From an uncultured Campylobacter sp. (lineage in GTDB: Bacteria; Actinomycetota; Actinomycetes; Mycobacteriales; Mycobacteriaceae), in contig CALTYW010000001.1 in NCBI GenBank assembly GCA_943913625.1, forward strand, positions 1 to 51,017: a stretch of 51,017 nt of DNA, in the 5' to 3' direction. This document shows, piece after piece, positions 17,771-51,017 of the stretch (within the stretch, counting starts at the first letter, position 1; each line of letters opens with the position of its first letter). The notes beneath the pieces were generated by a model. It searched no databases, was not told where the DNA came from, and worked only from the letters and a program-made list of their open reading frames with translations. Both the position numbers and the translations under genes were made by a program.

Positions 17771-17850
17771 GGAAGCGTCGCGCATGGTGCGCAACCCGTC
17801 TCGAACACGGGGGCCGCTAACCCGGAGGGGTTCGATTCCTCACGCTTCCG
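17771..17850 (+). tRNA. tRNA-Ser(CGA)
   Basis: GGAAGCG/CGCTTCC acceptor; CCCGT-CTCGAAC-ACGGG anticodon arm; long variable arm; GTTCGATTC. Confidence 0.85.
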
Positions 17851-17851
17851 C

Positions 17852-17935
17852 ACCCCGCTGGCGGAATTGGTAGACGCGACGTCCTCAAAAGGCGTTACCC
17901 GACCAGGTGTCCCGGTTCGAATCCGGGGCGGGGGA
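17852..17935 (+). tRNA. tRNA-Leu(CAA)
   Basis: TGGCGGAATTGGTAGACGC D arm; ACGTC-CTCAAAA-GGCGT; CCCGG-TTCGAAT-CCGGG; first acceptor pair mismatched. Confidence 0.85.
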
Positions 17936-18023
17936 CTGGGTCGCCCGGAGCCATAACTCGGGCCGACGGTGCGGCACACCGGCAGCCGCACAGCCCTAAC
18001 CCACCAACCACAAGGAGAACCGC

Positions 18024-30834: not shown

Positions 30835-31184
30835 ATGGCCCGTACGGCCCCTACGACCCACGGCCCCGCGCCTACGGAGAAGACGACCCCGGTGGTGGCC
30901 CGTACGACCCGGAGACGGGCTTGCGCGACTGGTACGGCTACACCGGCCCGCTTGTCGAGCAAGACCCGGAGCCGGAGCCGGTACAGATCCCGTGGTCGCT
31001 GATCCTGGAGCACTGGGCCGACATCGAGTGCGACCTGCACGAGAAATTCAATATCGACGCCGAATCGGGCATTTTGCGTCAACGCACCTGGCGGTGGCTC
31101 GAGCTGCGAATCACCGACCTGACCCGCCAGCCGTCACGACTCAAACAGGTCTGTGACGCCTACGCCCTAGAGGTGAGCCAATAA
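30717..31184 (+). CDS. Tail assembly chaperone -1 frameshift extension (GT)
   Basis: Open -1 frame from the slippery site to the TMP start; WADIECDLHE..RTWRW. Confidence 0.75.
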   Translation, partial: GKRTGATGAGSDDGADRDSGRSPGNSTVTGEHAEEETLLDGPYGPYDPRPRAYGEDDPGGGPYDPETGLRDWYGYTGPLVEQDPEPEPVQIPWSLILEHWADIECDLHEKFNIDAESGILRQRTWRWLELRITDLTRQPSRLKQVCDAYALEVSQ

Positions 31185-34100
31185 TGTCGATGGATCTGGG
31201 TACACTCCACGCCAAAATCACAGTCGATGCCAACGGTGTGTCGTCCACGCTGGGCAGCGTCAAGCGCGACCTGTCCGATGTCAAGCGCGACATGGAGCGC
31301 GTCGAGCGCACCAAGATGAACGTCGCCCCCACCGGGGAAGACAAAATCAAGTCCGCGTCGAAGAGCGCGCAACAGCTCGGCCAGGACATGGACAAAGCCG
31401 GCGACGCCGCCGAAAACCTGCGCGTCTCCGAGCAGCCCGCGCAGGAGCTGGAGCGCGCCGCTGGCTCCGGGCGGGGCTTGTCCGATGTGCTCTCGGGGCT
31501 GGGGAACGTCGCTCCGCTGGTTGGCCTGGCGGCTGCTGGCGCGGGTGTGGCCGGGGCGTTCCAACAGGCGCTCGAGCTGGGTAACGAGTTTACGAACCAG
31601 ATCAACACGGTGCGTGCCGTGTCGGGGGCGACCGAGGAGCAGTTGGCGGCTGTGGGGCAGCGCGCCCGCGAACTCGGCAACGACATCACCCTGTCCAACA
31701 CCTCGGCGTCCGATGCAGCGCTGGCGATGGCGGAGCTGGCTAAGGGTGGTTTCGAGGTCGACCAGGCGATGCAGGCTGCTAAGGGCACGTTGCAGCTCGC
31801 CGCTGCCGCGCAGGTGGATGCGGGTACGGCTGCGACGATCCAGGCGCAGGCGCTCAACAGCTTCGGGTTGCAGGCGGACTACGCGGCTAAGGCTGCGGAC
31901 GTGCTCGCCAACGCCGCGAACGCCTCGACTGCGGAAATGACCGACATCGCAGCCGGTTTACAGCAATCCGGCGCAGTCGCCGCACAGTTCGGCCTGTCAC
32001 TGGAGGACACTTCCGCAGCGCTGGGCATGTTCGCCAACGCCGGTATCACCGGCTCTGACGCCGGTACGCTGCTGAAAACCGCGCTACTGTCCCTGACCGA
32101 TCAGGGCAAGCCCGCGCAGCAAGCGATGGAAGAGCTGGGGCTGACCGTCTACGACGCCCAGGGCAAGTTCGTCGGCATGCACTCCCTGATGGAGCAGCTC
32201 GGGGAAGCCGCATCCCGCATGAGCGACGAGGAATATCAGGCTGCCGCCGCGACCCTGTTCGGCTCGGACGCGATGCGTCTGGCGGGTATCGCTGGTGAGC
32301 ACGGCGCGTCGGGCTACGACCAGATGCGTGAAGCCGTGGAGCGCGAGGGGGCGGCTGCTGATGTGGCTGCTGCGAAGACTCGTGGTCTGCCGGGTGCTAT
32401 CGCAGCTGTCGAGAACAGCGCCGAAGAACTCGCCTTGACGCTGTACGACCAGTTCTCCCCCGCACTAGAGAGCGGGCTGCGCCACCTCGCAGGCGGCATG
32501 GACGCCCTCGGCCCCGCAATCGCCGGCGTCGGCAACGCCATGCGCGCCGTCCCCGGCCCAGTATTCATTGCCATGCTCGCCGGCGTCGCCACCCGCATGC
32601 TCGACCTCAACACGAAGATGACGAGCGGGGTCGGGTCGATCAACCGCTACGCCAACACGGTGCGCACCCAGCTCACCTCCGCGTGGGCCACGGCCCGTAC
32701 CTCCGGCCAGCAGGCATCCGCCCAGCTTCGTGAGCGTCGCGCACAGCTCGCGCAGACCGCAGCAGCCGAACGCGCATTCGCCAACACCACCAAGAGCGCC
32801 CACATGTCCGCTATCGCGACGTCGCGGGCAATGGAGCTGGAGTGGAAGACCCGCATGCTCGGCATGCAGACCGCAGCAACCACGTTCGCGGGCACCACTC
32901 GCGGTGTGATGGTGGCCGGTTTCAACGGCATCAAGACTGCCGCGTCTGGGCTTATGGGGCTGCTCGGTGGGCCGTGGGGGTTGGCGCTTACCGCTGCTGC
33001 CGGTGTGGTCAGCGTGCTCGCCAGCAAGCACATGGAGGCTAAGGCTGCGGAGGAAGAGCACCAGGCGCAGCAAGCCCAACTCAAAGACAGCCTGGATCAG
33101 ACCACCGGCGCGATCACCGCCCAGACCAACGAACTACAAAAGAAGCGCGCTGAGGAAAACGATTGGATCGACACCGCAAATCAGCTCGGCGTGTCCTCCG
33201 ATACCGTTGTGGCCGCTATGAACGGCAACGCAGGTGCCATGCGTGAGGTCGAAAACGCCACCAAAGCTTCTACCCGCGCTGCTATCGAGGGTTCCGACAC
33301 CTGGAAGAAGAAAGCTGATCTGTACGCCGAATCCGGCGTGTCGCTCGACCTGCTGACCGACGCCGTCCACGGCAACGCAGACGCACAAAAGCAGCTGTCC
33401 GACATCATGGGCGGCGAGGGCGAACTCAACTTCTGGTCGAAGAAAGTCGAGGACGCCACCGCAAAGGCCCGTGACCTCAAAGACGGCGTCAACGGCGCAG
33501 CAGGCGAAGTAGAAGAGCTACAGGGCAAACTCCGCGCCGACCAGATCGCTGGCATCGATAAAGTGATTGGACAGACCCGCGACGCGTTCGCGCAGCTGGG
33601 TGATTCGATCACCGGCATTCCCGACGAGAAGACCATCGAGGTCTCGTCGATGGCCCCTGACGTCAAAAAGCAGTTCGAAGACCTGAACGCCACTGTCGAG
33701 CGCGGCGCGGATGGCCAGGTTCGAGTTACTTTTGACGATGGGCTCAACGTCATGGCCATGCTCGATCAAATCGGCGCGAGGGCTAAGGCGGGAATCGACG
33801 GTCGCGTCGATCTCTCCGACAACACCCCCGAGGTGCAAGAGCGACTCATTCAGCTCGGCATAGCGACCCGTGACCCAATCACTGGGCAACTCATGATGAC
33901 CGACAACTTGGCTGAAGTCATGGGCAAGCAAGAAGAACTCGGCGCCATCACTCGCGACCCCATCACTCAAGAGTTCACCGTTGTCGACAACGTCGAGCTG
34001 GTGAAGTCGGCGCTGCGTGACCTCAAGCAGGACATTTACGACATTCCACCTGGTGAAGTCCGCATCATGGACGACACCCCGAAGAACCGTGCCAACGTGC

Positions 34101-36661
34101 GCCAGCTCGGTATCGAGGTCGCGGAGCTACCCGGTGGTCACATCGCGATCACCGATACCTCACCGGAGAACCTGCTCAATCTCGCGACTCTCGGAACGCA
34201 AACGCAGAACCTCCCTCCGGGGCACGTCGGCATCACCGACACCACGCCAGAGAACCTTGCGCACCTCGCTGATCTGGGCGTCAAGACAACGACGCTGCCG
34301 AACGGCAAGGTGGTGGTCTCCGACAACGCCGATACGACCGCCAACCACATCAAGACCGTGCTGGCACCGCAGGCGATCAACACGTTCTCCGACCACACGG
34401 TCAACATCGTCCGCCGCATCACCGACATCTTCACCCGTGGCGACGCCAACGGCGGCGTGTACGACGGGGCGCAGCGCGCCCAAGCGTTCGCGGACGGCGG
34501 CACGACTCGAGCACTCGATCAGGCCATGTCCGGCCCCCGCAAGGAACCGGCGCACGTCGCCACGATCACCCCGCCCGGCACCTACCGCGTCCACGGCGAA
34601 TCCGAGACCGGGGGCGAAGCCTACATCCCCCTCGCAGCGTCGAAGCGTGACCGCTCCACCCGCATCCTGAACCACGTCGCCACCAGCTTTGGCTACAACC
34701 TCGTCACCAACGACGGGCGCGCTGTCGCACTTGCGGACGGCGCGGTGCTGCCGGGTGCTGCCGTGGAGAAGAAGCTGAAGTACATGGACAACACCCCCTA
34801 CATTTTCGGCGGGTGGACGCGTGCCGGCGTCGACTGCTCGGGCGCTGTCTCCCTCGGCGTGAACACAGCTTTGGGTCTGGACGAGTGGGACTCGCGTACC
34901 GCCACCGCTGGTGAGGGCGCGTGGCTGACGCAGAAAAACTTCCAGCGCGGCAAAGGCCAATCCGGCGACATCCGCGTCGCGTTCTACAATGGCGGGCCAG
35001 GTGGCGGCCACACGGCCATGCAGCTCGACAACGGCACGTTCATCGAGTCCGGCGGCAACACCGGGGGTGGCTTCACGATCAACCGTGGCGCAGGCCCACT
35101 CGAGGGCAGGGGCTTCACCGACTGGTACTTCCTGCCCGGTGCCCGCCCACTCAAGCCGGGGGAGGGGCTGGACTACTTCGACGCGCTCGACGGCGCGGCC
35201 GGCACCCGCACTGCCCGCGCCGCAAGGGGAAGCGACCTCGACGGCGTGAGCACCACCGAGCAGAAGCGCGAACTCAACGGCGGCGCAGGCCCGTTGATTC
35301 GTGACGGCTCCGTCCTGGAGCTGGTTGCCGCGCTCTACTCGTACCAGACTGGCCACCCGATGGACGACGACATTGTCTCCTGGGGCCAGGCCATCGGCCT
35401 GTACTCCGAGCTGTCCGAGAAGTCGGAGAAGAAAGCCGCCAAGGAAGCTGACAAGCTCACCAAGTCCATCGAGAAGAAGTCTGAGCAGCTCGACAAAAAG
35501 CGCGAAGCCCTCCCCACCGCCGAGGAAGACCTGCGCATTGCGAAGATGAAGCGCGACGAGGTCTACGGCAAAAAGGACAAGAACGGCAAGACCACCGCCA
35601 CCGAATCGCAAAAGGCCGCTGCCGATCAGCGCGTGGTCAAAGCCGAGCAAAAGGTCGAGAAGCTCAAGGAAGAAATCGCCAAGCTCGAAAAAGAAATGGC
35701 CGAGCAGGAAGCCGCACTCGCGGAGCTTGATTCCGACGTGCTGACCCCGGTCAACGAGATGGAAAAGGCCTCCGGCACCTCGGGCAACAAGTACGCCGAC
35801 GAAATCATCAAGGAGGGCCGCAAACGCGGTATCACTGACCGTGGCATCAAGATCGCGCTCGCCACTGCGCTGGTGGAGTCGAACATGAAGATGTACGCGA
35901 ACCCGGCGGATCCGCCGTCGATGAAAATGCCGCATGACGCGGTCGGCTCCGACCACGATTCCGTGGGCCTGTTCCAGCAGCGGGCGAACGGCGCGTGGGG
36001 CACCACCGCCGACCGCATGGATCCAGCCAAGAGCGCGGGCATGTTCTACGACCAGCTGGTCAAGGCGGACTACAACACCGGCGACGCCGGCGCGCACGCC
36101 CAACGTGTGCAGCGCTCGGCGTTTCCTGGACGCTACGCGCAGCGCATGGACGAAGCCCAAGGCTTCCTCGACAAGTACAACTCGAGCGCTAAGGCGAAGA
36201 TCACCCCGATGGCTGACGGCGGCATCCTCGGGAATGCGCGCCAGGCGTCGATCAACGAGGGGTCGGCGGTGCTGTGGGCGGAAGCCGGGCCGGAAGCCTA
36301 CATCCCCCTGTCTTCCGATAAGCGGGCACGCTCCATCGAGATTTGGAAAGAGACCGGCAAACGCCTGGGCGTCGACGTCATGAGCATGTTCAACCTGATC
36401 GGCTCCGGCCTGCCCGGACTGGTGGAGGGCAAGCTCGACTTCGACACCGGGGGCAGCACCTCGATCCACCGCCTGGGCATCAACGAGGAAGCGGCGTCGT
36501 ACCGGGCGAAGCGTCACGCCCAGCGCGAGGTCACCAACGCCGTGGGCGCAGTCTTCAACGGCCCGGTGCAAATCAACGACCCGAAGCAGTACCTCCAGCG
36601 CCAGATGGACACCGCCCAGAAGCAGCTAGGTAATGCCATGAGGAGCGTGATGCTGAAATGA
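31184..36661 (+). CDS. Tape measure protein with NlpC/P60-like and lytic transglycosylase-like domains
   Basis: 1825 aa, Ala-rich; PYIFGG..GVDCSG..GHTA; ALVESN..SVGLFQQ. Confidence 0.93.
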   Translation: MSMDLGTLHAKITVDANGVSSTLGSVKRDLSDVKRDMERVERTKMNVAPTGEDKIKSASKSAQQLGQDMDKAGDAAENLRVSEQPAQELERAAGSGRGLSDVLSGLGNVAPLVGLAAAGAGVAGAFQQALELGNEFTNQINTVRAVSGATEEQLAAVGQRARELGNDITLSNTSASDAALAMAELAKGGFEVDQAMQAAKGTLQLAAAAQVDAGTAATIQAQALNSFGLQADYAAKAADVLANAANASTAEMTDIAAGLQQSGAVAAQFGLSLEDTSAALGMFANAGITGSDAGTLLKTALLSLTDQGKPAQQAMEELGLTVYDAQGKFVGMHSLMEQLGEAASRMSDEEYQAAAATLFGSDAMRLAGIAGEHGASGYDQMREAVEREGAAADVAAAKTRGLPGAIAAVENSAEELALTLYDQFSPALESGLRHLAGGMDALGPAIAGVGNAMRAVPGPVFIAMLAGVATRMLDLNTKMTSGVGSINRYANTVRTQLTSAWATARTSGQQASAQLRERRAQLAQTAAAERAFANTTKSAHMSAIATSRAMELEWKTRMLGMQTAATTFAGTTRGVMVAGFNGIKTAASGLMGLLGGPWGLALTAAAGVVSVLASKHMEAKAAEEEHQAQQAQLKDSLDQTTGAITAQTNELQKKRAEENDWIDTANQLGVSSDTVVAAMNGNAGAMREVENATKASTRAAIEGSDTWKKKADLYAESGVSLDLLTDAVHGNADAQKQLSDIMGGEGELNFWSKKVEDATAKARDLKDGVNGAAGEVEELQGKLRADQIAGIDKVIGQTRDAFAQLGDSITGIPDEKTIEVSSMAPDVKKQFEDLNATVERGADGQVRVTFDDGLNVMAMLDQIGARAKAGIDGRVDLSDNTPEVQERLIQLGIATRDPITGQLMMTDNLAEVMGKQEELGAITRDPITQEFTVVDNVELVKSALRDLKQDIYDIPPGEVRIMDDTPKNRANVRQLGIEVAELPGGHIAITDTSPENLLNLATLGTQTQNLPPGHVGITDTTPENLAHLADLGVKTTTLPNGKVVVSDNADTTANHIKTVLAPQAINTFSDHTVNIVRRITDIFTRGDANGGVYDGAQRAQAFADGGTTRALDQAMSGPRKEPAHVATITPPGTYRVHGESETGGEAYIPLAASKRDRSTRILNHVATSFGYNLVTNDGRAVALADGAVLPGAAVEKKLKYMDNTPYIFGGWTRAGVDCSGAVSLGVNTALGLDEWDSRTATAGEGAWLTQKNFQRGKGQSGDIRVAFYNGGPGGGHTAMQLDNGTFIESGGNTGGGFTINRGAGPLEGRGFTDWYFLPGARPLKPGEGLDYFDALDGAAGTRTARAARGSDLDGVSTTEQKRELNGGAGPLIRDGSVLELVAALYSYQTGHPMDDDIVSWGQAIGLYSELSEKSEKKAAKEADKLTKSIEKKSEQLDKKREALPTAEEDLRIAKMKRDEVYGKKDKNGKTTATESQKAAADQRVVKAEQKVEKLKEEIAKLEKEMAEQEAALAELDSDVLTPVNEMEKASGTSGNKYADEIIKEGRKRGITDRGIKIALATALVESNMKMYANPADPPSMKMPHDAVGSDHDSVGLFQQRANGAWGTTADRMDPAKSAGMFYDQLVKADYNTGDAGAHAQRVQRSAFPGRYAQRMDEAQGFLDKYNSSAKAKITPMADGGILGNARQASINEGSAVLWAEAGPEAYIPLSSDKRARSIEIWKETGKRLGVDVMSMFNLIGSGLPGLVEGKLDFDTGGSTSIHRLGINEEAASYRAKRHAQREVTNAVGAVFNGPVQINDPKQYLQRQMDTAQKQLGNAMRSVMLK

Positions 36662-39361: not shown

Positions 39362-40885
39362 ATGACCCAGATACTCGACTGGTCGCAGCGGTTCAGCTTC
39401 GGCAGCGCCCGCCCGACCAGCGCGATCAGCCTTATCTGCATCCACGTCACGGTCAACCGGCCTGGCACGCCTGCGGAGAACGTGGCGAACTACCAAATCC
39501 GCTCGCAGTCCGGTTCGTATCACGAGCTGGTTGACACCCGCCCGGTGGTGCTGATCGAGAACACGGACGACTGGCGCACCTGGTCGTCCGGCAACCGTGG
39601 CAACGATATCGGCTGGCACTTGTCGTTCGTCGTGATGGGCAACGAGACCCGCGAGCAGTGGCTTGCCCAGGACGCGATGCTGCGAGCCGGTGCGAAACGC
39701 TGCGCGATCCGTGCGAAGAAGTACGGCATCCCGGTCGTGAAGCTCACGGCTGCGGATCTGCGCGCCGGGAAGCGCGGCTTCTGTGGCCACCTGGAGACCG
39801 GCCAAGCCTGGGGCGGCACAGACCACGTAGACCCCGGCAAGCACTTCCCCTGGGACGTGTTTCTGCGCTACGTCCGCGAATACATGGGCCAAGCACCCGC
39901 CCCGGCTGCGAAGCCAGCGGCCCCGGCACCCAAGGTCACTAAGGCGGGCGAGCGCATGCTTGACTACCCGCGAGACCAGGTCAAGCAGGACACCGGCTAC
40001 AACTGCGGCCCCGCGAGTGTGCAGACCGCGATCCGCGCTGCCGGTGGGCCGCTTGTGTCGGAATCGACGCTGGCGCGGGAGCTGCGCACCTCCACCAGGG
40101 GCACGGACTACATCGGGCAGTTCCCCAAGGTGCTCGACAAGTACATCCCAGGCGCGAAGTACAAACACACCGACATCCCGAACGACCCGCCCACGAACTC
40201 GCAGAAAGAAAAATTCTGGGCTGATCTGACCGGCTCCATCAACGCCGGCCACGCCGTCGTGGTGAACATCTGCGCCCCGCCGTCGAACTACCCGCGTGCG
40301 GTGTGGCCGTCCACCATTTCCCCGAACTACAGGGGCGGCACCGTGTGGCACTACATCCTCGCCACCGGATACGCCGGCGAGGGCAAGAACCGCCGCGTCT
40401 GGATCGCAGATAGCGGTTTCGACCCGTACGGCTACTGGATCAGCTTTGACCAGCTCGCCACTCTCGTCCCACCCAAGGGCTACGCGTACAGCGTCGCCCA
40501 ACCAACCACAACCTCTAAGGAGACCCCAGTGTCCTCAACCCGCGTCATCCTCGGCGGCGAATCCGCAGCCGCCCTCCACGAAGCCAAGATCAGCTCCAAG
40601 AATGTCGAGGACGCCACTCGCCGCCTGGAGCGCACCGTCACCCTGATCGCAGACCAGCTGCTCGGCTGGCCGAAGAACGACAAGGGCGAATACCTCATTT
40701 CCGGCTGGGACTTCGATTCGATTCTCGCGTCCGCGAAGAAGAAGCTCGACGCCGGCAAGGGCGTGACCCTCGTCGAACAGATCGCGCTACTGCAAGACCA
40801 GAACAAGCACATCATCGAAGCGGTCAAGCAGTCCAACGACTCGGTCACGCACCTGATCGACGCTTACGAAGCAGGAGTGAAGTAG
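39362..40885 (+). CDS. Endolysin: amidase, C39-like peptidase and C-terminal domain
   Basis: ICIHVT, SYH, CGH..HVDPG; QDTGYNCGPAS..WHY..ADSG. Confidence 0.9.
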   Translation: MTQILDWSQRFSFGSARPTSAISLICIHVTVNRPGTPAENVANYQIRSQSGSYHELVDTRPVVLIENTDDWRTWSSGNRGNDIGWHLSFVVMGNETREQWLAQDAMLRAGAKRCAIRAKKYGIPVVKLTAADLRAGKRGFCGHLETGQAWGGTDHVDPGKHFPWDVFLRYVREYMGQAPAPAAKPAAPAPKVTKAGERMLDYPRDQVKQDTGYNCGPASVQTAIRAAGGPLVSESTLARELRTSTRGTDYIGQFPKVLDKYIPGAKYKHTDIPNDPPTNSQKEKFWADLTGSINAGHAVVVNICAPPSNYPRAVWPSTISPNYRGGTVWHYILATGYAGEGKNRRVWIADSGFDPYGYWISFDQLATLVPPKGYAYSVAQPTTTSKETPVSSTRVILGGESAAALHEAKISSKNVEDATRRLERTVTLIADQLLGWPKNDKGEYLISGWDFDSILASAKKKLDAGKGVTLVEQIALLQDQNKHIIEAVKQSNDSVTHLIDAYEAGVK

Positions 40886-46615: not shown

Positions 46616-48451
46616 ATGCAGATGCAGTTCACGACGGTGAAGCGGGCGGTCAAGGCCGTGCACGTAGACGGCTACGACAATGACCGCGCCCCCGAGGTCG
46701 AACAGGTGCAAGGCTCGGTCACGTTTTACCCGATGATGGGTGAGGGTGACAGTGTCCAGGTGCAGACCGTGGAGGGGCCAGTCACGGTGGTGCTCACCCC
46801 GATTACGGTGCGGATTGCGGACGGCATGGTGATGCACCGTGGCGGTATCGGGGTGCAGCTTTTCGCCGGTGGCAAGGGGTCAGAGCCGTCGCTGATTCGG
46901 TGGCGGGCGCGGTTCACGAACCTCCAATCTGACGGCGTGCCAATCCAGCTGCGGGACGTCGTTTTCGACGCGGTGCCCGGTGGGGAAGTCGACCTCACCA
47001 CCGCAGCACCCCTCGCGAACGCGCCGGAGCCTATCGTGCGCGGCCCGCAAGGTGTGTCGATGGATTCGCTGACGGTGGAGGGCGGCGACCTCGTTGTGTG
47101 GGGCCGCTCCGAATCCGGCAAGCAGGTGCTGTCGCGGATCAAGATGTCGCAGATCACCGAACCTGCGGCACAAGCAGCAGCGGACGACACACTCGCGAAG
47201 CTCAAGAAGACGCTGGACGCCAAGGCGGACAAGGACGAGACCGCGCAGGCACTGGGAACCAAGGCCAATCAGGAAGCCGTGACCACCGCGCTGGCGCTTA
47301 AGGCCGACAAGACCGCGCTAACAACTGGGTTGTCGGGCAAGGCGGACACGTCGCACAAGCACACCTCGGCGGACGTAACCGACGCGAAGAGCACGCCGAC
47401 GGCGGGCGTGCTCGTCAAGTACGACACGGGCGGATTGTTCACCGTCGGCACCCCCAAGGTCGACGCGCACCCGACGACGAAGAAGTACGTCGAAGAAGCA
47501 CTGACGAAGAAAGCTGACAAACAGCACTCTCACCCGATCAGCGACGTCACCGGGCTACAGGCCGCGCTCGACGTCAAAGCGGCGAACGCCCACAAGCACG
47601 GACAGGGCGACATCATCGGCCTGGACACGACCTTGGCGGGCAAGGCCGATAAAACGCACAGCCACGGCTGGGATGGGATCACCGGCAAACCCACCACGTT
47701 CACCCCTGCTGCGCACAGCCACACCATCGGCAACGTGACAGGGCTACAGTCCGCCCTTGACGACAAACTCCCCAAGACGCACTTCAAGGTCGATTCCACA
47801 CTGTACGACCCGCAGCGCGTCGTAATCGACGGTTTTACAGCGTCCGATGCGCGTACTGAGGTCGCCGGGATTCTTAAGACTGCGGGGTTGACAAGCATCG
47901 GTAAAACCGGTGTGTGGTCTATCGCGGTTGGTGTTGACGCGGTTGCTGAGCATGCGCTTGGGGTGGCTGTCGGCGCGTGGTCGGTGGCTCTTGGTGAGCA
48001 GGTGGTCGCGCTTGGCTCTCTAGCGGTCGCTAGTGCCCAGTGTGCGGTCTCTATCGGCCCGTCAGCAATCGCAATGGGTACCTGGTCGCTTGCGCTGGGC
48101 GGGGCAGCCAAGGTCGGGAAAGGCGCGACGAATTCCGTCGCTCTCGGCCCCAATGCCGTCGTGAACACCCCCAACACGATTCAACTTGGGGCATCCGGTG
48201 CCACCGTCAACGTCTCCGGCGATTTGACGATCCCTGATCCGAAGCAAGGCCGTAGTGCTGCGACGAAGCATTATGTCGATACTCGCAAAGTCCAGATCAG
48301 CCAGGTCAATGGCTTGGCGGCGGAGCTGGGGGCGCGCCCGAACGCGTGGATCATCGAAACCGCTGCGGAGCTGAAGGCGACGGAGGCGAAGGCGCGGCCC
48401 GGCGACATTATTTTTGTGGACGAAACCGGCGAGAAATGGAAGGTGAGCTAA
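46616..48451 (+). CDS. Tail fibre with H-x-H repeats and YadA-head-like repeats
   Basis: HSHPISDVTGLQAALD repeats; SIAVG/SVALG/AVSIG repeats; AATKHYVD. Confidence 0.8.
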   Translation: MQMQFTTVKRAVKAVHVDGYDNDRAPEVEQVQGSVTFYPMMGEGDSVQVQTVEGPVTVVLTPITVRIADGMVMHRGGIGVQLFAGGKGSEPSLIRWRARFTNLQSDGVPIQLRDVVFDAVPGGEVDLTTAAPLANAPEPIVRGPQGVSMDSLTVEGGDLVVWGRSESGKQVLSRIKMSQITEPAAQAAADDTLAKLKKTLDAKADKDETAQALGTKANQEAVTTALALKADKTALTTGLSGKADTSHKHTSADVTDAKSTPTAGVLVKYDTGGLFTVGTPKVDAHPTTKKYVEEALTKKADKQHSHPISDVTGLQAALDVKAANAHKHGQGDIIGLDTTLAGKADKTHSHGWDGITGKPTTFTPAAHSHTIGNVTGLQSALDDKLPKTHFKVDSTLYDPQRVVIDGFTASDARTEVAGILKTAGLTSIGKTGVWSIAVGVDAVAEHALGVAVGAWSVALGEQVVALGSLAVASAQCAVSIGPSAIAMGTWSLALGGAAKVGKGATNSVALGPNAVVNTPNTIQLGASGATVNVSGDLTIPDPKQGRSAATKHYVDTRKVQISQVNGLAAELGARPNAWIIETAAELKATEAKARPGDIIFVDETGEKWKVS

Positions 48452-49141
48452 ATGGCGCTGAAACGGATTAGACGCGGGGCGCGATTGCACCCGGCACAGG
48501 TGAAGCCCGGTAGCGGGTGGGCAAACGTGACCGCCCCAGGGAGCACGAACCCTTACTTCATCGGGGCGGCTGACCAGCGTCTTACGGTGACCGCCTCGAA
48601 TTGTGACGGGGTGCGTATCTACGACTGGGGTAAATCCCCGAACCTGTACACGGAGTCGACGCCGGGTTCCACGCTGCATAGTGCCGTGGCGCTCGTGTCC
48701 AACATGGGCTTCGGCCCCGTGGTGCGTGTACTCAATCCGACTGAAAACACGGAGGTAACTATCATGTCTGAACCGCTCCCCCCCCCCTGCTCAATAGCAG
48801 GTTTGCGCGCCTGGGTAGGTGGTTGCCGTGGCGCTGAGGAAACTGAACTCGGTGCAGGAAGCGTCCGGCACCGGGTGGCGCGCCCACAAGCAGGGCCGCA
48901 TCGTCGTACTGATCTGCCAGGATTTGCCCATCGGGACGAGCGAGTTGCTGCCGGACGGGTTCAGGCCAATGGGCTACGTCGAGGTTGCAGCCAAGGGCAA
49001 CGACCCCGCCACAAACAACTGTGGTCTAGCGGTGCGGTGGAACGGCAGAATGACCGTCTACGGGGCGGGCAAGTCCACCACGGTGAACGCGGTTGTAACG
49101 TTCGTGGTCGGCGGCTGACCCCGCAGGGGGTGGGGGCGTAA
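48452..49141 (+). CDS. MAL-cassette gene A1 (domain ends at the C10 tract, then reads through B1 out of frame)
   Basis: MALKRI...SEPLPPPC; stop TAA overlaps the ATG at 49141. Confidence 0.7.
   Translation: MALKRIRRGARLHPAQVKPGSGWANVTAPGSTNPYFIGAADQRLTVTASNCDGVRIYDWGKSPNLYTESTPGSTLHSAVALVSNMGFGPVVRVLNPTENTEVTIMSEPLPPPCSIAGLRAWVGGCRGAEETELGAGSVRHRVARPQAGPHRRTDLPGFAHRDERVAAGRVQANGLRRGCSQGQRPRHKQLWSSGAVERQNDRLRGGQVHHGERGCNVRGRRLTPQGVGA
48778..48787 (+). repeat. C10 homopolymer tract 1
   Basis: ctCCCCCCCCCCtgc. Confidence 0.9.
48828..49118 (+). CDS. MAL-cassette gene B1, receptor-binding head-like domain
   Basis: (M)ALRKL...KQGRIVVL...LPDGFRP. Confidence 0.7.
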   Translation: MALRKLNSVQEASGTGWRAHKQGRIVVLICQDLPIGTSELLPDGFRPMGYVEVAAKGNDPATNNCGLAVRWNGRMTVYGAGKSTTVNAVVTFVVGG

Positions 49142-49494
49142 TGGCACTACGTCTTATTGGCCGTAGCCCGGTGCAGCATGTGTTGGAGGGCTACGCGAAC
49201 CCCGGCGATCCATACATCACGTTCCCGCACGCCAAAAACATCAACCCCACCCCGAACCGGTACCAGGTACGCCCCGGTACTGGCATGTGGCTGGTTACGC
49301 TCACTGCGAGCGACCCTGAAGCGTCGATCCGTCTGGCGATCCAAAACGGTGTCGAGATTTGGGGTAAGGGCAGCGTTTCGGGGTGCGACTACATCACAAA
49401 CCCGACGTATTGGGTGCTGTGTAGTCCGGGTGCGGTTAAGCAAGCAACCCGGTATGTATTGACCCTCACGAAAACAGCCCCCCCCCCTGCGTAA
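49141..49494 (+). CDS. MAL-cassette gene A2 (ends at the C10 tract)
   Basis: MALRLI...KTAPPPA*. Confidence 0.7.
   Translation: MALRLIGRSPVQHVLEGYANPGDPYITFPHAKNINPTPNRYQVRPGTGMWLVTLTASDPEASIRLAIQNGVEIWGKGSVSGCDYITNPTYWVLCSPGAVKQATRYVLTLTKTAPPPA
49478..49487 (+). repeat. C10 homopolymer tract 2
   Basis: gCCCCCCCCCCtgc. Confidence 0.9.
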
Positions 49495-49521
49495 TTGCAA
49501 GATTCTGGGGTGGTGGTCGCG

Positions 49522-49830
49522 GTGGCGCTAAGGAAGATCGGCGGCAGGGACAGTGTGCTGTGCCGTACCGGCGACACACCCTCATACCGCAATTGGGCCA
49601 CCTGGGACTTACCCACAGATCACCCCACGGTGACGGTGCCCAAACCGGAGATGGTCAAAGCGCAACGTGGGAAGTGGCGCTGCGAAGTTTTGGCAGGCCG
49701 CGCTTTGACCTACGTAGATGGGAAGAATGTGGGAGAAAACGGTCCCGGCGTGTACGTGTACGAGGGGGAGCTGGCGGTCTACAACCAGCGCAGCGAACCC
49801 GTCACCATGATTCTCACCCGGTTGGCCTGA
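49522..49830 (+). CDS. MAL-cassette gene B2
   Basis: (M)ALRKIGG...VTMILTRLA. Confidence 0.7.
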   Translation: MALRKIGGRDSVLCRTGDTPSYRNWATWDLPTDHPTVTVPKPEMVKAQRGKWRCEVLAGRALTYVDGKNVGENGPGVYVYEGELAVYNQRSEPVTMILTRLA

Positions 49831-49851
49831 CCCTCGTAGGGGGTGAGGGCC

Positions 49852-50124
49852 GTGGCGCTTAGAAAGATCAGCACGACCACGACCGCGAACGGCGCAGGCT
49901 ACTACGCGGTGAAACAAGGCCGGGTGGTCATTGTCGAAATCGTCAATTGGGATGGCACATCCATCTCTCTGCCGTGGCCACCCGCATACCGAGCACGCGG
50001 AACGCTATTCCAGACGGGCAGCACAGCGCCCGCCAGGTGCAACGCGAACACGACTGGGCAACTCGACGCTTACGACATGACCGGCAACGGTGCGCTGTGG
50101 GGCCAGGTCACCTACATCACCTAA
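49852..50124 (+). CDS. MAL-cassette gene C, related to B1
   Basis: (M)ALRKIS...KQGRVVIV...QVTYIT. Confidence 0.7.
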   Translation: MALRKISTTTTANGAGYYAVKQGRVVIVEIVNWDGTSISLPWPPAYRARGTLFQTGSTAPARCNANTTGQLDAYDMTGNGALWGQVTYIT

Positions 50125-50182: not shown

Positions 50183-50836
50183 ATGAACGTTGAGCAGATC
50201 ACCCAAGCCCTCCGCGAAGTGTCGGACGCGGACTTCGAGCACATCTTCGACCAAATGATCCTGATCCGCCAGGAGCGCCAGGCCCGCCCACAGGTCGAAG
50301 CGGCCAAGGTGGACATGGCCACCCAGCTCTGGGAGGAACACCCAAACCTAAAACCGGAATACCAGGACACCGACCCTGAACCTGCCGAGACCATCGACTC
50401 CCTGGTGGCGAAAATTCCCCCATGGAAGAAACCCTCCGGCCCGGCAACCGCGTACCCGCCAGCATCCTTGGTGCAGCACCAGGGCAAGCTGTGGCGCAAC
50501 CGCACGCGGGGCATGAACGAATCTGAGCCTGGCACGAAGTGGTCGCGGTGGGAGGACGTCACCCGCGATTTCCTCCGTCCCGAGCCGGTGCACGATGGCA
50601 ACGCCCCGGAGCAGGAATCGCCGACGTCAGAGAAACCCGCACCGACGCCGGAGTCGGAGGAACCGCAGAACGTCACCCCGGCCCCAACCGTGGCGGCCTG
50701 GACGCCTGGTGAGACCCTCATTAAGGGCACCACCCGCACCTATAAGGGCAAGCTGTATGTCTGTCAGCGATTCCACACGACCAAGGCAGGGTTGGAGCCT
50801 GATGCTGGTACCGGGTACTGGCAGCTGCTCGTGTAA
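50183..50836 (+). CDS. Tail-associated protein with carbohydrate-binding-like modules
   Basis: AYPPASLVQHQGKLW..EPG; WTPG..TYKGKLYVC..H..EP..W. Confidence 0.65.
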   Translation: MNVEQITQALREVSDADFEHIFDQMILIRQERQARPQVEAAKVDMATQLWEEHPNLKPEYQDTDPEPAETIDSLVAKIPPWKKPSGPATAYPPASLVQHQGKLWRNRTRGMNESEPGTKWSRWEDVTRDFLRPEPVHDGNAPEQESPTSEKPAPTPESEEPQNVTPAPTVAAWTPGETLIKGTTRTYKGKLYVCQRFHTTKAGLEPDAGTGYWQLLV

Positions 50837-50963: not shown

Positions 50964-51017
50964 TGGAGCCGGCGACGAGAATCGAACTCGCACTCTCAGC
51001 TTGGGAAGCTGATGTTC
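50964..51017 (-). tRNA. tRNA-Gly(CCC) 3' portion and right att core (5' end beyond the window)
   Basis: Reverse complement ...TCAGC-TTCCCAA-GCTGA..GCGAGTTCGATTCTCGTCGCCGGCTCCA. Confidence 0.93.

Follow-up and report, generated by a model that had tools for sequence, protein, structure and literature searches.

A slippage-prone repeat as a candidate three-state switch among putative receptor-binding head genes of a Corynebacterium prophage

Repeat-driven phase variation is usually understood as binary: the gene that holds the repeat is on, or it is off. Hypermutable poly-G tracts in the genes of Campylobacter phages reportedly work in this way, a frameshift inside the gene turning that single gene on or off. 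Other systems provide one fibre with alternative receptor-binding ends by means of dedicated enzymes: the G segment of phage Mu with its invertase Gin, and the shufflons, depend on invertases and inverted repeats, and diversity-generating retroelements (DGRs) on a reverse transcriptase. Here we describe an array of five small genes, 1.7 kilobases long, that follows a tail fibre gene in a prophage of Corynebacterium. It occupies positions 48452..50124 of the forward strand of contig CALTYW010000001.1 (assembly GCA_943913625.1), and the whole stretch of 51,017 nucleotides that was analysed is called the window. Two of the five genes carry a poly-C tract close to their 3' end, and, depending on the length of such a tract, the three reading frames seem to act as addresses of downstream genes, in a way that lets two tracts be chained. 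The explanation that we favour, and hold to be fairly probable, is a heritable three-state contingency switch that routes ribosomes, by termination and reinitiation, among alternative heads of the fibre.

Simple sequence repeats occur in the genomes of T2, T4 and other phages, where they give reversible on/off frameshifts, as in agt and rIIA, that serve as bet-hedging, and where they are under-represented in tail fibre genes (bioRxiv 10.1101/2025.10.21.683753). The present locus shares the repeats with these contingency loci; the passages of that preprint that concern them describe neither routing nor coupling. A closer relative is the C-terminal phase variation of Neisseria and Helicobacter, in which one frame sometimes reaches the downstream gene (Zelewska et al. 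2016, PMC5320596): the repeat lies near the 3' end of a gene and the three frames yield three C-terminal ends, as is found here. In the portions of that study that treat such genes, the output is the gene's own tail or a fusion, whereas here there is no fusion, the frames lead to the starts of separate genes, and the genes that are crossed are free of stops. Coupling overlaps such as UGAUG and UAAUG are, in the relevant part of another study, classed apart from phase variation (Antonov et al. 2013, PMC3711429). In ordinary translational coupling, too, a stop lies only a few nucleotides from the start that follows, but the partner is fixed, at least in the systems covered there; here, a mutable repeat would choose among three partners. 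A literature search for a switch that combines coupling with repeat phase variation, with most subscription journals outside its coverage, found none. We would thus place the locus among the contingency loci of the C-terminal class, the part that seems new being a multi-way choice of the downstream reinitiation site.

The two tracts, both C10, are found at positions 48778..48787 and 49478..49487. They are the only homopolymers of at least 7 nucleotides in the window, and the whole assembly contains 8 runs of at least 8, two of which are these tracts, 700 nucleotides apart. All five genes lie on the forward strand and are called head genes on grounds given below. The first, A1, starts at position 48452 and bears tract 1 three codons from its natural end; in its short state, which corresponds to C9, it spans 48452..48797. 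Three frames leave this tract. The CCT frame meets the stop TAG at 48795-48797. The CTG frame continues through a linker (48788..48827) that holds the G-rich element GGGTAGGTGG, similar to a Shine-Dalgarno (SD) sequence, and stops at TGA 48835-48837, 7 nucleotides inside the second head gene, B1 (GTG start, 48828..49118, 96 amino acids). The TGC frame crosses B1, whose +2 frame holds no stop, and remains open for 118 codons up to TAA 49139-49141, which overlaps the ATG of the third gene, A2, at 49141, in the motif TAATG (49139..49143).

A2 (49141..49494, 117 amino acids) carries tract 2, and the same three fates are found again behind it. The first frame has an immediate stop, TAA 49492-49494; the second, again CTG, stops at TAA 49529-49531, 7 nucleotides inside B2 (GTG start, 49522..49830, 102 amino acids); and the long frame crosses B2, also stop-free in +2, for 125 codons to TAG 49860-49862, 8 nucleotides inside C (GTG start, 49852..50124, 90 amino acids), the last head gene and a member of the B1 family. 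In the A-type proteins, the tails that follow the proline run have 2-3, 13-18 and about 113-216 residues in the three frames. Just past the tract, stops close the frame in which the next gene is read, so that no fusion product is possible. These six stops, and the fates behind each tract, had been read from the letters alone in the original prediction, and every coordinate proved correct. So did its assignment of tract lengths, derived from the frames of A1 (48452) and A2 (49141): at tract 1, C9 leads to the immediate stop, C10 to A2 and C11 to B1; at tract 2, C9 leads to B2, C10 to the stop and C11 to C. As assembled, A1 is in its long state (an open reading frame of 229 amino acids that ends at 49141) and A2 in its short state (117 amino acids, ending in PPPA). 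The prediction had added that B1, B2 and C are off in this state, which is too strong a word for genes that have SD-like elements of their own.

The mechanism that we propose would run as follows. Slipped-strand mispairing in replication would change, heritably, the length of a slippage-prone repeat placed three codons before the end of the first and third head genes, and this length would set the frame in which ribosomes leave the head gene. In the short state, the A-type head would be intact and the ribosomes released 30-39 nucleotides short of the next start. In the B-start state, termination would occur 3-10 nucleotides from the start codon of the adjoining gene, where the ribosomes could reinitiate. 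In the long state, they would pass through that adjoining gene in another frame and stop where the one behind it begins. Termination beside a start codon would favour reinitiation at that start; ribosomes that pass the start of B in the long state would also hinder B's own initiation, and the long extension may disable the A-type head, making the choice more exclusive. Placed in series, two switches would then act as a decision tree and bias the choice of head, the second switch of some relatives being a poly-G tract that only long-frame ribosomes would read. Since the heads are predicted to share one dock, the bias would decide what the tip of the fibre binds.

We infer from this layout that B1, A2, B2 and C are translated according to tract length, and likewise reinitiation, interference and an effect on host range. 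If so, contingency loci gain multi-way choice by reinitiation as an output logic, phages gain another way of diversifying receptor binding, and the long "junk" open frames that lie over real genes in operons of high G+C receive a concrete explanation. A bolder formulation describes a heritable and reversible router in base 3, whose two-repeat tree picks among up to five interchangeable heads for one fibre dock, which achieves bet-hedging of host range without recombinase, retroelement or regulator, and whose crossed genes are under synonymous-site selection; this version we consider as apt to fail as to hold.

The layout of the window is found again in related prophages. The comparison covers seven distinct prophages with 10 junctions, two each in the genome of the window (G000), in G015 and in G137, and one each in L042, L043, G176 and G166. 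The first frame stops 4-9 nucleotides past the repeat at all 10 junctions, which leaves this short-state stop 30-39 nucleotides before the next start. Relative to the next gene's start, the second frame ends at +7 (8 junctions) or -3 (2 junctions); the third runs across that gene and has its stop at -2 (5), +8 (3), -3 (1) or +5 (1) from a later start. Thus, two of the three frames at each of the 10 junctions end at -3, -2, +5, +7 or +8 of a start, the distances of coupled genes. The stop and the start are brought together in various ways: TAATG, TGATG, TAAATG, TAGGTG, or a stop 5-8 nucleotides inside the next gene. The assignment of frames to fates is moreover permuted among loci, and the stop solutions differ. 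At tract 2 of G015, for example, the long frame is CTG, and it is the TGC frame that ends at the TAAATG of B2', the gene in the place of B2. Permuted fates, reached by different stops, indicate that the layout is maintained, and not merely inherited.

The repeat itself also varies in kind. At the site of the poly-C tract, G137 has (CT)9 and G176 has (CT)12, and the repeat lengths observed in the relatives are C9-C11, G9-G10, (CT)9 and (CT)12. The presence of another slippery sequence at the same site argues for selection on mutability, that is, on slippage itself; and because CT repeats encode Leu-Ser, the proline tail is not the target of selection. Two loci add a second kind of junction, a poly-G tract between the stop of the B gene and the next start (G10 in L042, G9 in L043). 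All three frames of both tracts end near a start, at those of genes g3 (-3), g4 (-3) and g5 (+8), and one of them is continuous with the long frame of the poly-C tract; in L042, this long frame is open over 1000 nucleotides and spans three genes. The cascade that had been suspected in the window is thus seen here in a purer form, a poly-C long frame followed by a poly-G tract with three starts. Frame outcomes, then, are conserved despite divergent gene content at 10/10 junctions and 2/2 poly-G tracts.

The genes that are crossed provide a contrast. The genes of the arrays were grouped by position, not by outcome: slot genes are those that immediately follow a gene with a repeat, or that stand between a poly-G tract and the last gene. 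All 14 slot genes are without a stop in +2, and gene g3 of L042 and L043, which is crossed in both alternative frames, has no +1 stop either. Among the repeat-bearing and last genes, the corresponding count is 0 of 15, with 1-8 stops in each. The stops of the long frame are therefore not scattered in the homologues. Across the genome, 16-22% of gene windows have a +2 frame that is open over 100-125 codons; on the contig of the window, the figure is 8-12.5%. When codons are resampled by genome usage with the amino acids preserved, the probability of finding no stop is 0.080 for B1 and 0.042 for B2, and ranges over 0.04-0.34 per gene across the slot genes. The product over the 12 slot genes outside the window, about 2e-13, treats kin as independent and so overstates the case. 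A conservative control shuffles synonymous codons inside a gene; for the ten genes so treated, the probability is still 0.03-0.47 each.

A real overlapping protein in the long frame was considered and rejected: the extensions are rich in R and G and unconserved between G000 and G015. More generally, the tail peptides are not conserved beyond what the SD element and the start motif impose. Judging from the sequences, open crossing frames whose translation is unconserved would have no evident reason unless ribosomes read to their end.

These counts bear directly on the possibility that the repeat does no more than give the A-type head one of three tails (the natural one, one longer by 13-18 residues and one longer by about 115 residues of junk) and so turn that head on or off, with the frame ends as a by-product of the start motif and of high G+C. 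Such pure C-terminal variation would agree with the position of the repeat at the 3' end, as in the C-terminal phase-variable genes already described; a junk tail of about 118 amino acids on a jelly-roll head could plausibly disable it; the stop embedded in the +1 frame of the start motif is also found in A1, which no tract feeds; and chance alone opens 16-22% of gene windows in +2. However, it leaves unexplained the contrast of 14/14 against 0/15, the long-frame ends at -2, -3, +5 and +8 at 10/10 junctions with differing stops, and the three-start layout of the poly-G tracts, which lie outside annotated genes. We find this explanation improbable.

The length of the tracts varies in DNA, and had been predicted to do so. 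Contig L039 is identical to G015 over 3239 nucleotides, and a comparison of L040 with L039 over the same 3239 nucleotides gives 0 mismatches and 1 gap, tract 1 being C9 versus C10. Proteins identical to A1 and A2 of the window are found in short, B-start and long forms on other contigs. In the cluster of A1, the B-start form of 128 amino acids is on 12 contigs (11, plus 1 variant with an interrupted tract), the long form of 229 on 7 and the short form of 115 on 1; in the cluster of A2, the long form of 240 amino acids is on 24 contigs, the short form of 117 on 3 and the B-start form of 129 on 1, these contig counts not being independent samples. Representatives of the clusters behave likewise, with 19 B-start, 7 short and 6 long forms in the A1 family (n=32, one of the long forms being cut by the end of its contig) and 5 B-start, 5 short and 1 partial in the A2 family (n=11); P0029 and P0030, nearly identical to each other, also differ in state. 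Taking as a contingency locus a homopolymer of roughly 8 nucleotides or more, or several units of di- to penta-nucleotides, in or next to a gene, we have here both a slippable repeat and a length that differs between near-identical sequences. One practical consequence is that automatic annotation of these loci gives versions of 115, 128 or 229 amino acids of one protein. Two members of the A1 cluster differ in the tract itself: in P0050, Pro replaces Leu before the tract, which implies a longer C-run, and in P0051 a Thr stands within the proline run, which implies an interrupted and possibly locked tract.

Long homopolymers can also cause polymerase slippage, and the same frames would serve equally well a mixture that is fixed in each cell, in which the proportions of the heads would be set by transcriptional slippage, or by frameshifting of the ribosome, on the C-run, and no heritable change would be involved. 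Against such recoding, the differences of length are directly seen in the DNA of near-identical copies; no fusion product can be made, the B frame being closed just past the tract; no known recoding RNA family of Rfam matches; and (CT)n repeats are classic substrates of replication slippage. We regard it as very unlikely.

We now turn to the proteins that would be chosen. All five small proteins begin with M/V-A-L-R/K-K/L-I. None matches a Pfam family at threshold (GP38 is found for A2 with an E-value of 0.02, below the cut-off), and the matches to PHROG families are weak, the best (7.6e-4) being to the C-terminal end of a minor tail protein. The models say more. That of the B1 family has a predicted local distance difference test score (pLDDT) of 89.7 and the beta-barrel fold of a head, and Foldseek relates it with probability 1.00 and TMq 0.58-0.68 to 3da0, 2bse, 1zru, 4hem, 2f0c and 6r5w, which are head domains of lactococcal phage receptor-binding proteins and the receptor-binding protein of Listeria phage PSA. 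The best E-value is 3.8e-4 (3da0_C, TMq 0.66) and the highest TMq that of 4hem_C (0.68); only 3 matches have an E-value of at most 1e-3. The model of A1 (pLDDT 86.5) is all-beta, an eight-strand beta sandwich. Foldseek gives it no match at an E-value of at most 1e-3, and VIA finds C1q (Z 8.6), PRD1 P5 (8.0) and BclA (7.8), as well as knobs of the TNF family, at background-level Z (about 8). On the strength of these models, the small proteins look like receptor-binding heads.

The C-terminal motif of the fibre is conserved in the five loci that were aligned. A model of three copies of its last 75 residues with three copies of B1 reaches an interface score (ipSAE) of 0.63, against 0.40 for the best control; the mark applied is reached by 58 of 80 solved complexes and by 2 of 110 mismatched pairs. 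At least 80% of the contacts are common to the three runs, and the pLDDT of the partner is at least 86. The modelled interface joins residues 66-75 of the 75 to residues 1-6 of B1, most firmly 70-75 to 3-6. The model supports binding of B1 to the fibre, and fits interchangeable heads that compete for one fibre dock through a common N-terminal peptide. The suspicion that these genes encode receptor-binding parts of the tail tip gains from both results, the fold match of B1 and its docking on the end of the fibre. The head domain that the B1 model matches is that of ORF18 of phage p2 and ORF49 of TP901-1, lactococcal proteins in which the head is the C-terminal domain of a longer protein with shoulder, or stem and neck. 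Here, by contrast, the predicted heads stand alone behind a docking peptide of about 8 residues, several in tandem.

The outcome would resemble that of Mu with Gin, of the shufflons and of DGRs: alternative receptor-binding ends for one fibre. The difference is that those systems switch by invertase or reverse transcriptase, and that no long inverted repeat brackets the array, the longest arms being of 24 nucleotides at 71%. No search of the window was aimed at a recombinase or reverse transcriptase; an integrase-type gene was seen in L040. The array would thus offer a recombinase-free way to vary host recognition. A phage-encoded homopolymer whose slippage would diversify host recognition is also what links it to the Campylobacter phages; the tracts of those phages reportedly lie inside the gene, whereas the repeat is here at the extreme 3' end, its frames leading to different starts.

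Several observations weigh against routing. The 10 junctions are homologous and come from a single genus, and are not independent trials. The complex was modelled on small custom alignments and as homotrimers, unlike the complexes of its calibration. A G-rich SD-like element is found 5-8 nucleotides upstream of the start of every small gene, so that independent initiation is possible, with coupling perhaps doing no more than modulating it. The start motif contains an embedded stop, to which the original prediction had drawn attention and which is indeed present in B1 and B2; however, a +1 TGA is also embedded in the start of A1 (ATGGCGCTGAAA), which has no tract upstream, and such a stop can arise from the conserved N-terminus alone, so that the motif by itself is no evidence. 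Finally, some older assemblies may hold errors of homopolymer length. Carried to its end, this last point would make all tract lengths sequencing errors and the genes ordinary ones; the assembly of the window, with 215 contigs and 77% completeness, and the origin of L039 and L040 in old isolate records lend themselves to it. But the three states recur on many contigs (12/7/1 for A1, 24/3/1 for A2), dinucleotide repeats fill the same role, and the frame architecture is independent of any single tract length, so that a mere artefact is scarcely credible.

RNA structure adds further points of this kind. The linker hairpins have z-scores of -1.58 to +0.88 against shuffled sequences, and those that could mask SD-like elements before the targets of the long frame, with z from +0.49 to -3.5, are only suggestive. 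The latter pair a C-run (CCCCC or CCACC) with a G-run over the SD-like element, and are found in 12 upstream regions, that at window 49116-49140 included. Their alignment folds with 4 weak pairs only, the CCCCC and CCACC types being in different registers, and we do not claim covariation. The stop of each B-slot gene lies at the foot of such a hairpin, directly before it, and the hairpin covers the SD-like element of the gene behind: B and its downstream neighbour may thus also be coupled in the ordinary way, in parallel, although the hairpins as a set are not significant. Pairing of poly-C with the SD element of the next gene was also tried as a candidate structure; it appears in the minimum-energy folds of the type II linkers, yet 6/6 linkers fold no better than shuffles, and it was rejected.

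Such ordinary coupling belongs naturally with a further explanation, in which the repeat is tolerated, or needed for something else, and the frames are arranged so that downstream translation survives any length, with no choice among genes. That all three frames end near a start or at once would suit this buffering, as would the position of the B-slot stops at the foot of the hairpins. Nevertheless, the short state ends 30-39 nucleotides before the next start, which is not a coupling distance; that (CT)n can stand where poly-C is otherwise found suggests that mutability is selected for; and three frames that deliver ribosomes to different genes are not neutral for stoichiometry. Buffering of this sort seems to us unlikely. 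None of the rival explanations accounts for the contrast of 14/14 against 0/15 together with the exact placement of the stops. We favour routing, an interpretation that the comparative tests support and that is unproven at the level of translation.

As to the setting of the array, the prophage is of siphovirus type and its host is Corynebacterium; the source record of a related protein names Corynebacterium sp. The genome of the window has 63.5% G+C, in an assembly of 2,267,074 bases. Matches to PHROG families in the window include terminase, portal, major head, tape measure and minor tail proteins, and the array lies at the far (distal) end of the tail module. The genes follow one another in this order: a coiled-coil protein of 725 amino acids, the fibre of 611, the five small genes, a protein of 217 with a CBM_5_12 module, and a cut tRNA gene. 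The fibre gene (46616..48451, forward strand) is an open reading frame with a Pfam PTR repeat (2.7e-18) and matches to PHROG tail families. Its stop TAA directly abuts the ATG of A1 (TAAATG), and a fusion of the fibre with A1 by readthrough was considered; it would be in frame in the window (TAA ATG) and not in G015 (TAATG), and was discarded. The gene of the CBM_5_12 protein (50183..50836, forward strand), which marks the end of the array in all related loci, begins 58 nucleotides past the stop of C, and is therefore not coupled stop to start. The tRNA gene (50967..51017, reverse strand; Rfam tRNA, 34.2 bits, 5' end cut) is cut by the end of the window and is probably the attachment site of the prophage. 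A scan of the array found no promoter-like sites inside it and no terminator-like sites on the forward strand, which weakly fits a single transcript.

The array is rare. A profile of the A family matches 5 of the 321 genomes of the genus, and the N-terminus of the fibre 12 of the 321, among which only G015 carries the array; it is found in none of 11 fibre-linked stretches from other genomes. IMG/VR yielded two contigs of the G015 type (L039 and L040) and L043, and a scan of metagenomes yielded L042 and one chance match. L041 is a chance match of the pattern (GC 47%). A search of phage records with the 2-kilobase region gave no match; the N-terminus of the fibre gave 51 pattern matches in genome contigs, 0 of them confirmed; a pattern scan of genome contigs, from which near records may be excluded, gave 0 matches; and an alignment of the A1 family against viral contigs gave nothing beyond the contig of L043.

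Other repeats are found in the same genomic slot. Behind related fibres, near the 5' end of an unrelated family of small genes that start with MLYVGNKIPKQVTVGG, there are poly-G tracts: G7 in L028 (1789-1795), L047 (5517-5523) and L049 (5511-5517), G8 in L050 (5510-5517) and G9 in L048 (5515-5523). The copies with G7 or G9 are out of frame; that with G8 alone reads in frame, and it resembles its paralogue downstream. The tract has the look of a classic on/off switch. In other prophages of the genus, two further long homopolymers are located in the stretch that runs from the fibre to where the tail module ends: G11 in L030 (2327-2337, genome G156) and G9 in L054 (5748-5756). The genome of the window holds a second prophage (G000 contig C2, 44011-47936; L031), with a related N-terminus of the fibre, other genes downstream and no long homopolymer.

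The history of the array may be visible in its linkers. Read by eye, the linker after tract 2 (window 49488-49508, TGCGTAATTGCAAGATT) resembles the start of a small gene with a deletion (TGGCGTAATTGGCTTTACGCAAGATT, L042 549-577), as if the linkers derived from former gene starts and recombination between conserved 5' ends were the way in which the array evolves. A 14-nucleotide inverted repeat, 93% complementary, joins window 49122-49135 to 49478-49491, 342 nucleotides apart: one arm is the SD-like region that precedes A2 (CGCAGGGGGTGGGG), the other is tract 2 together with the TGCG at the end of A2.

Elsewhere in the window, a protein of 507 amino acids with strong matches to endolysin families of PHROG is encoded within the tail module (39362-40885), and the tape measure protein, of 1825 amino acids (31184-36661), contains endolysin-like segments. 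Two adjacent tRNA genes, tRNA-Ser(cga) and tRNA-Leu(caa), lie at 17771-17936, upstream of the terminase gene.

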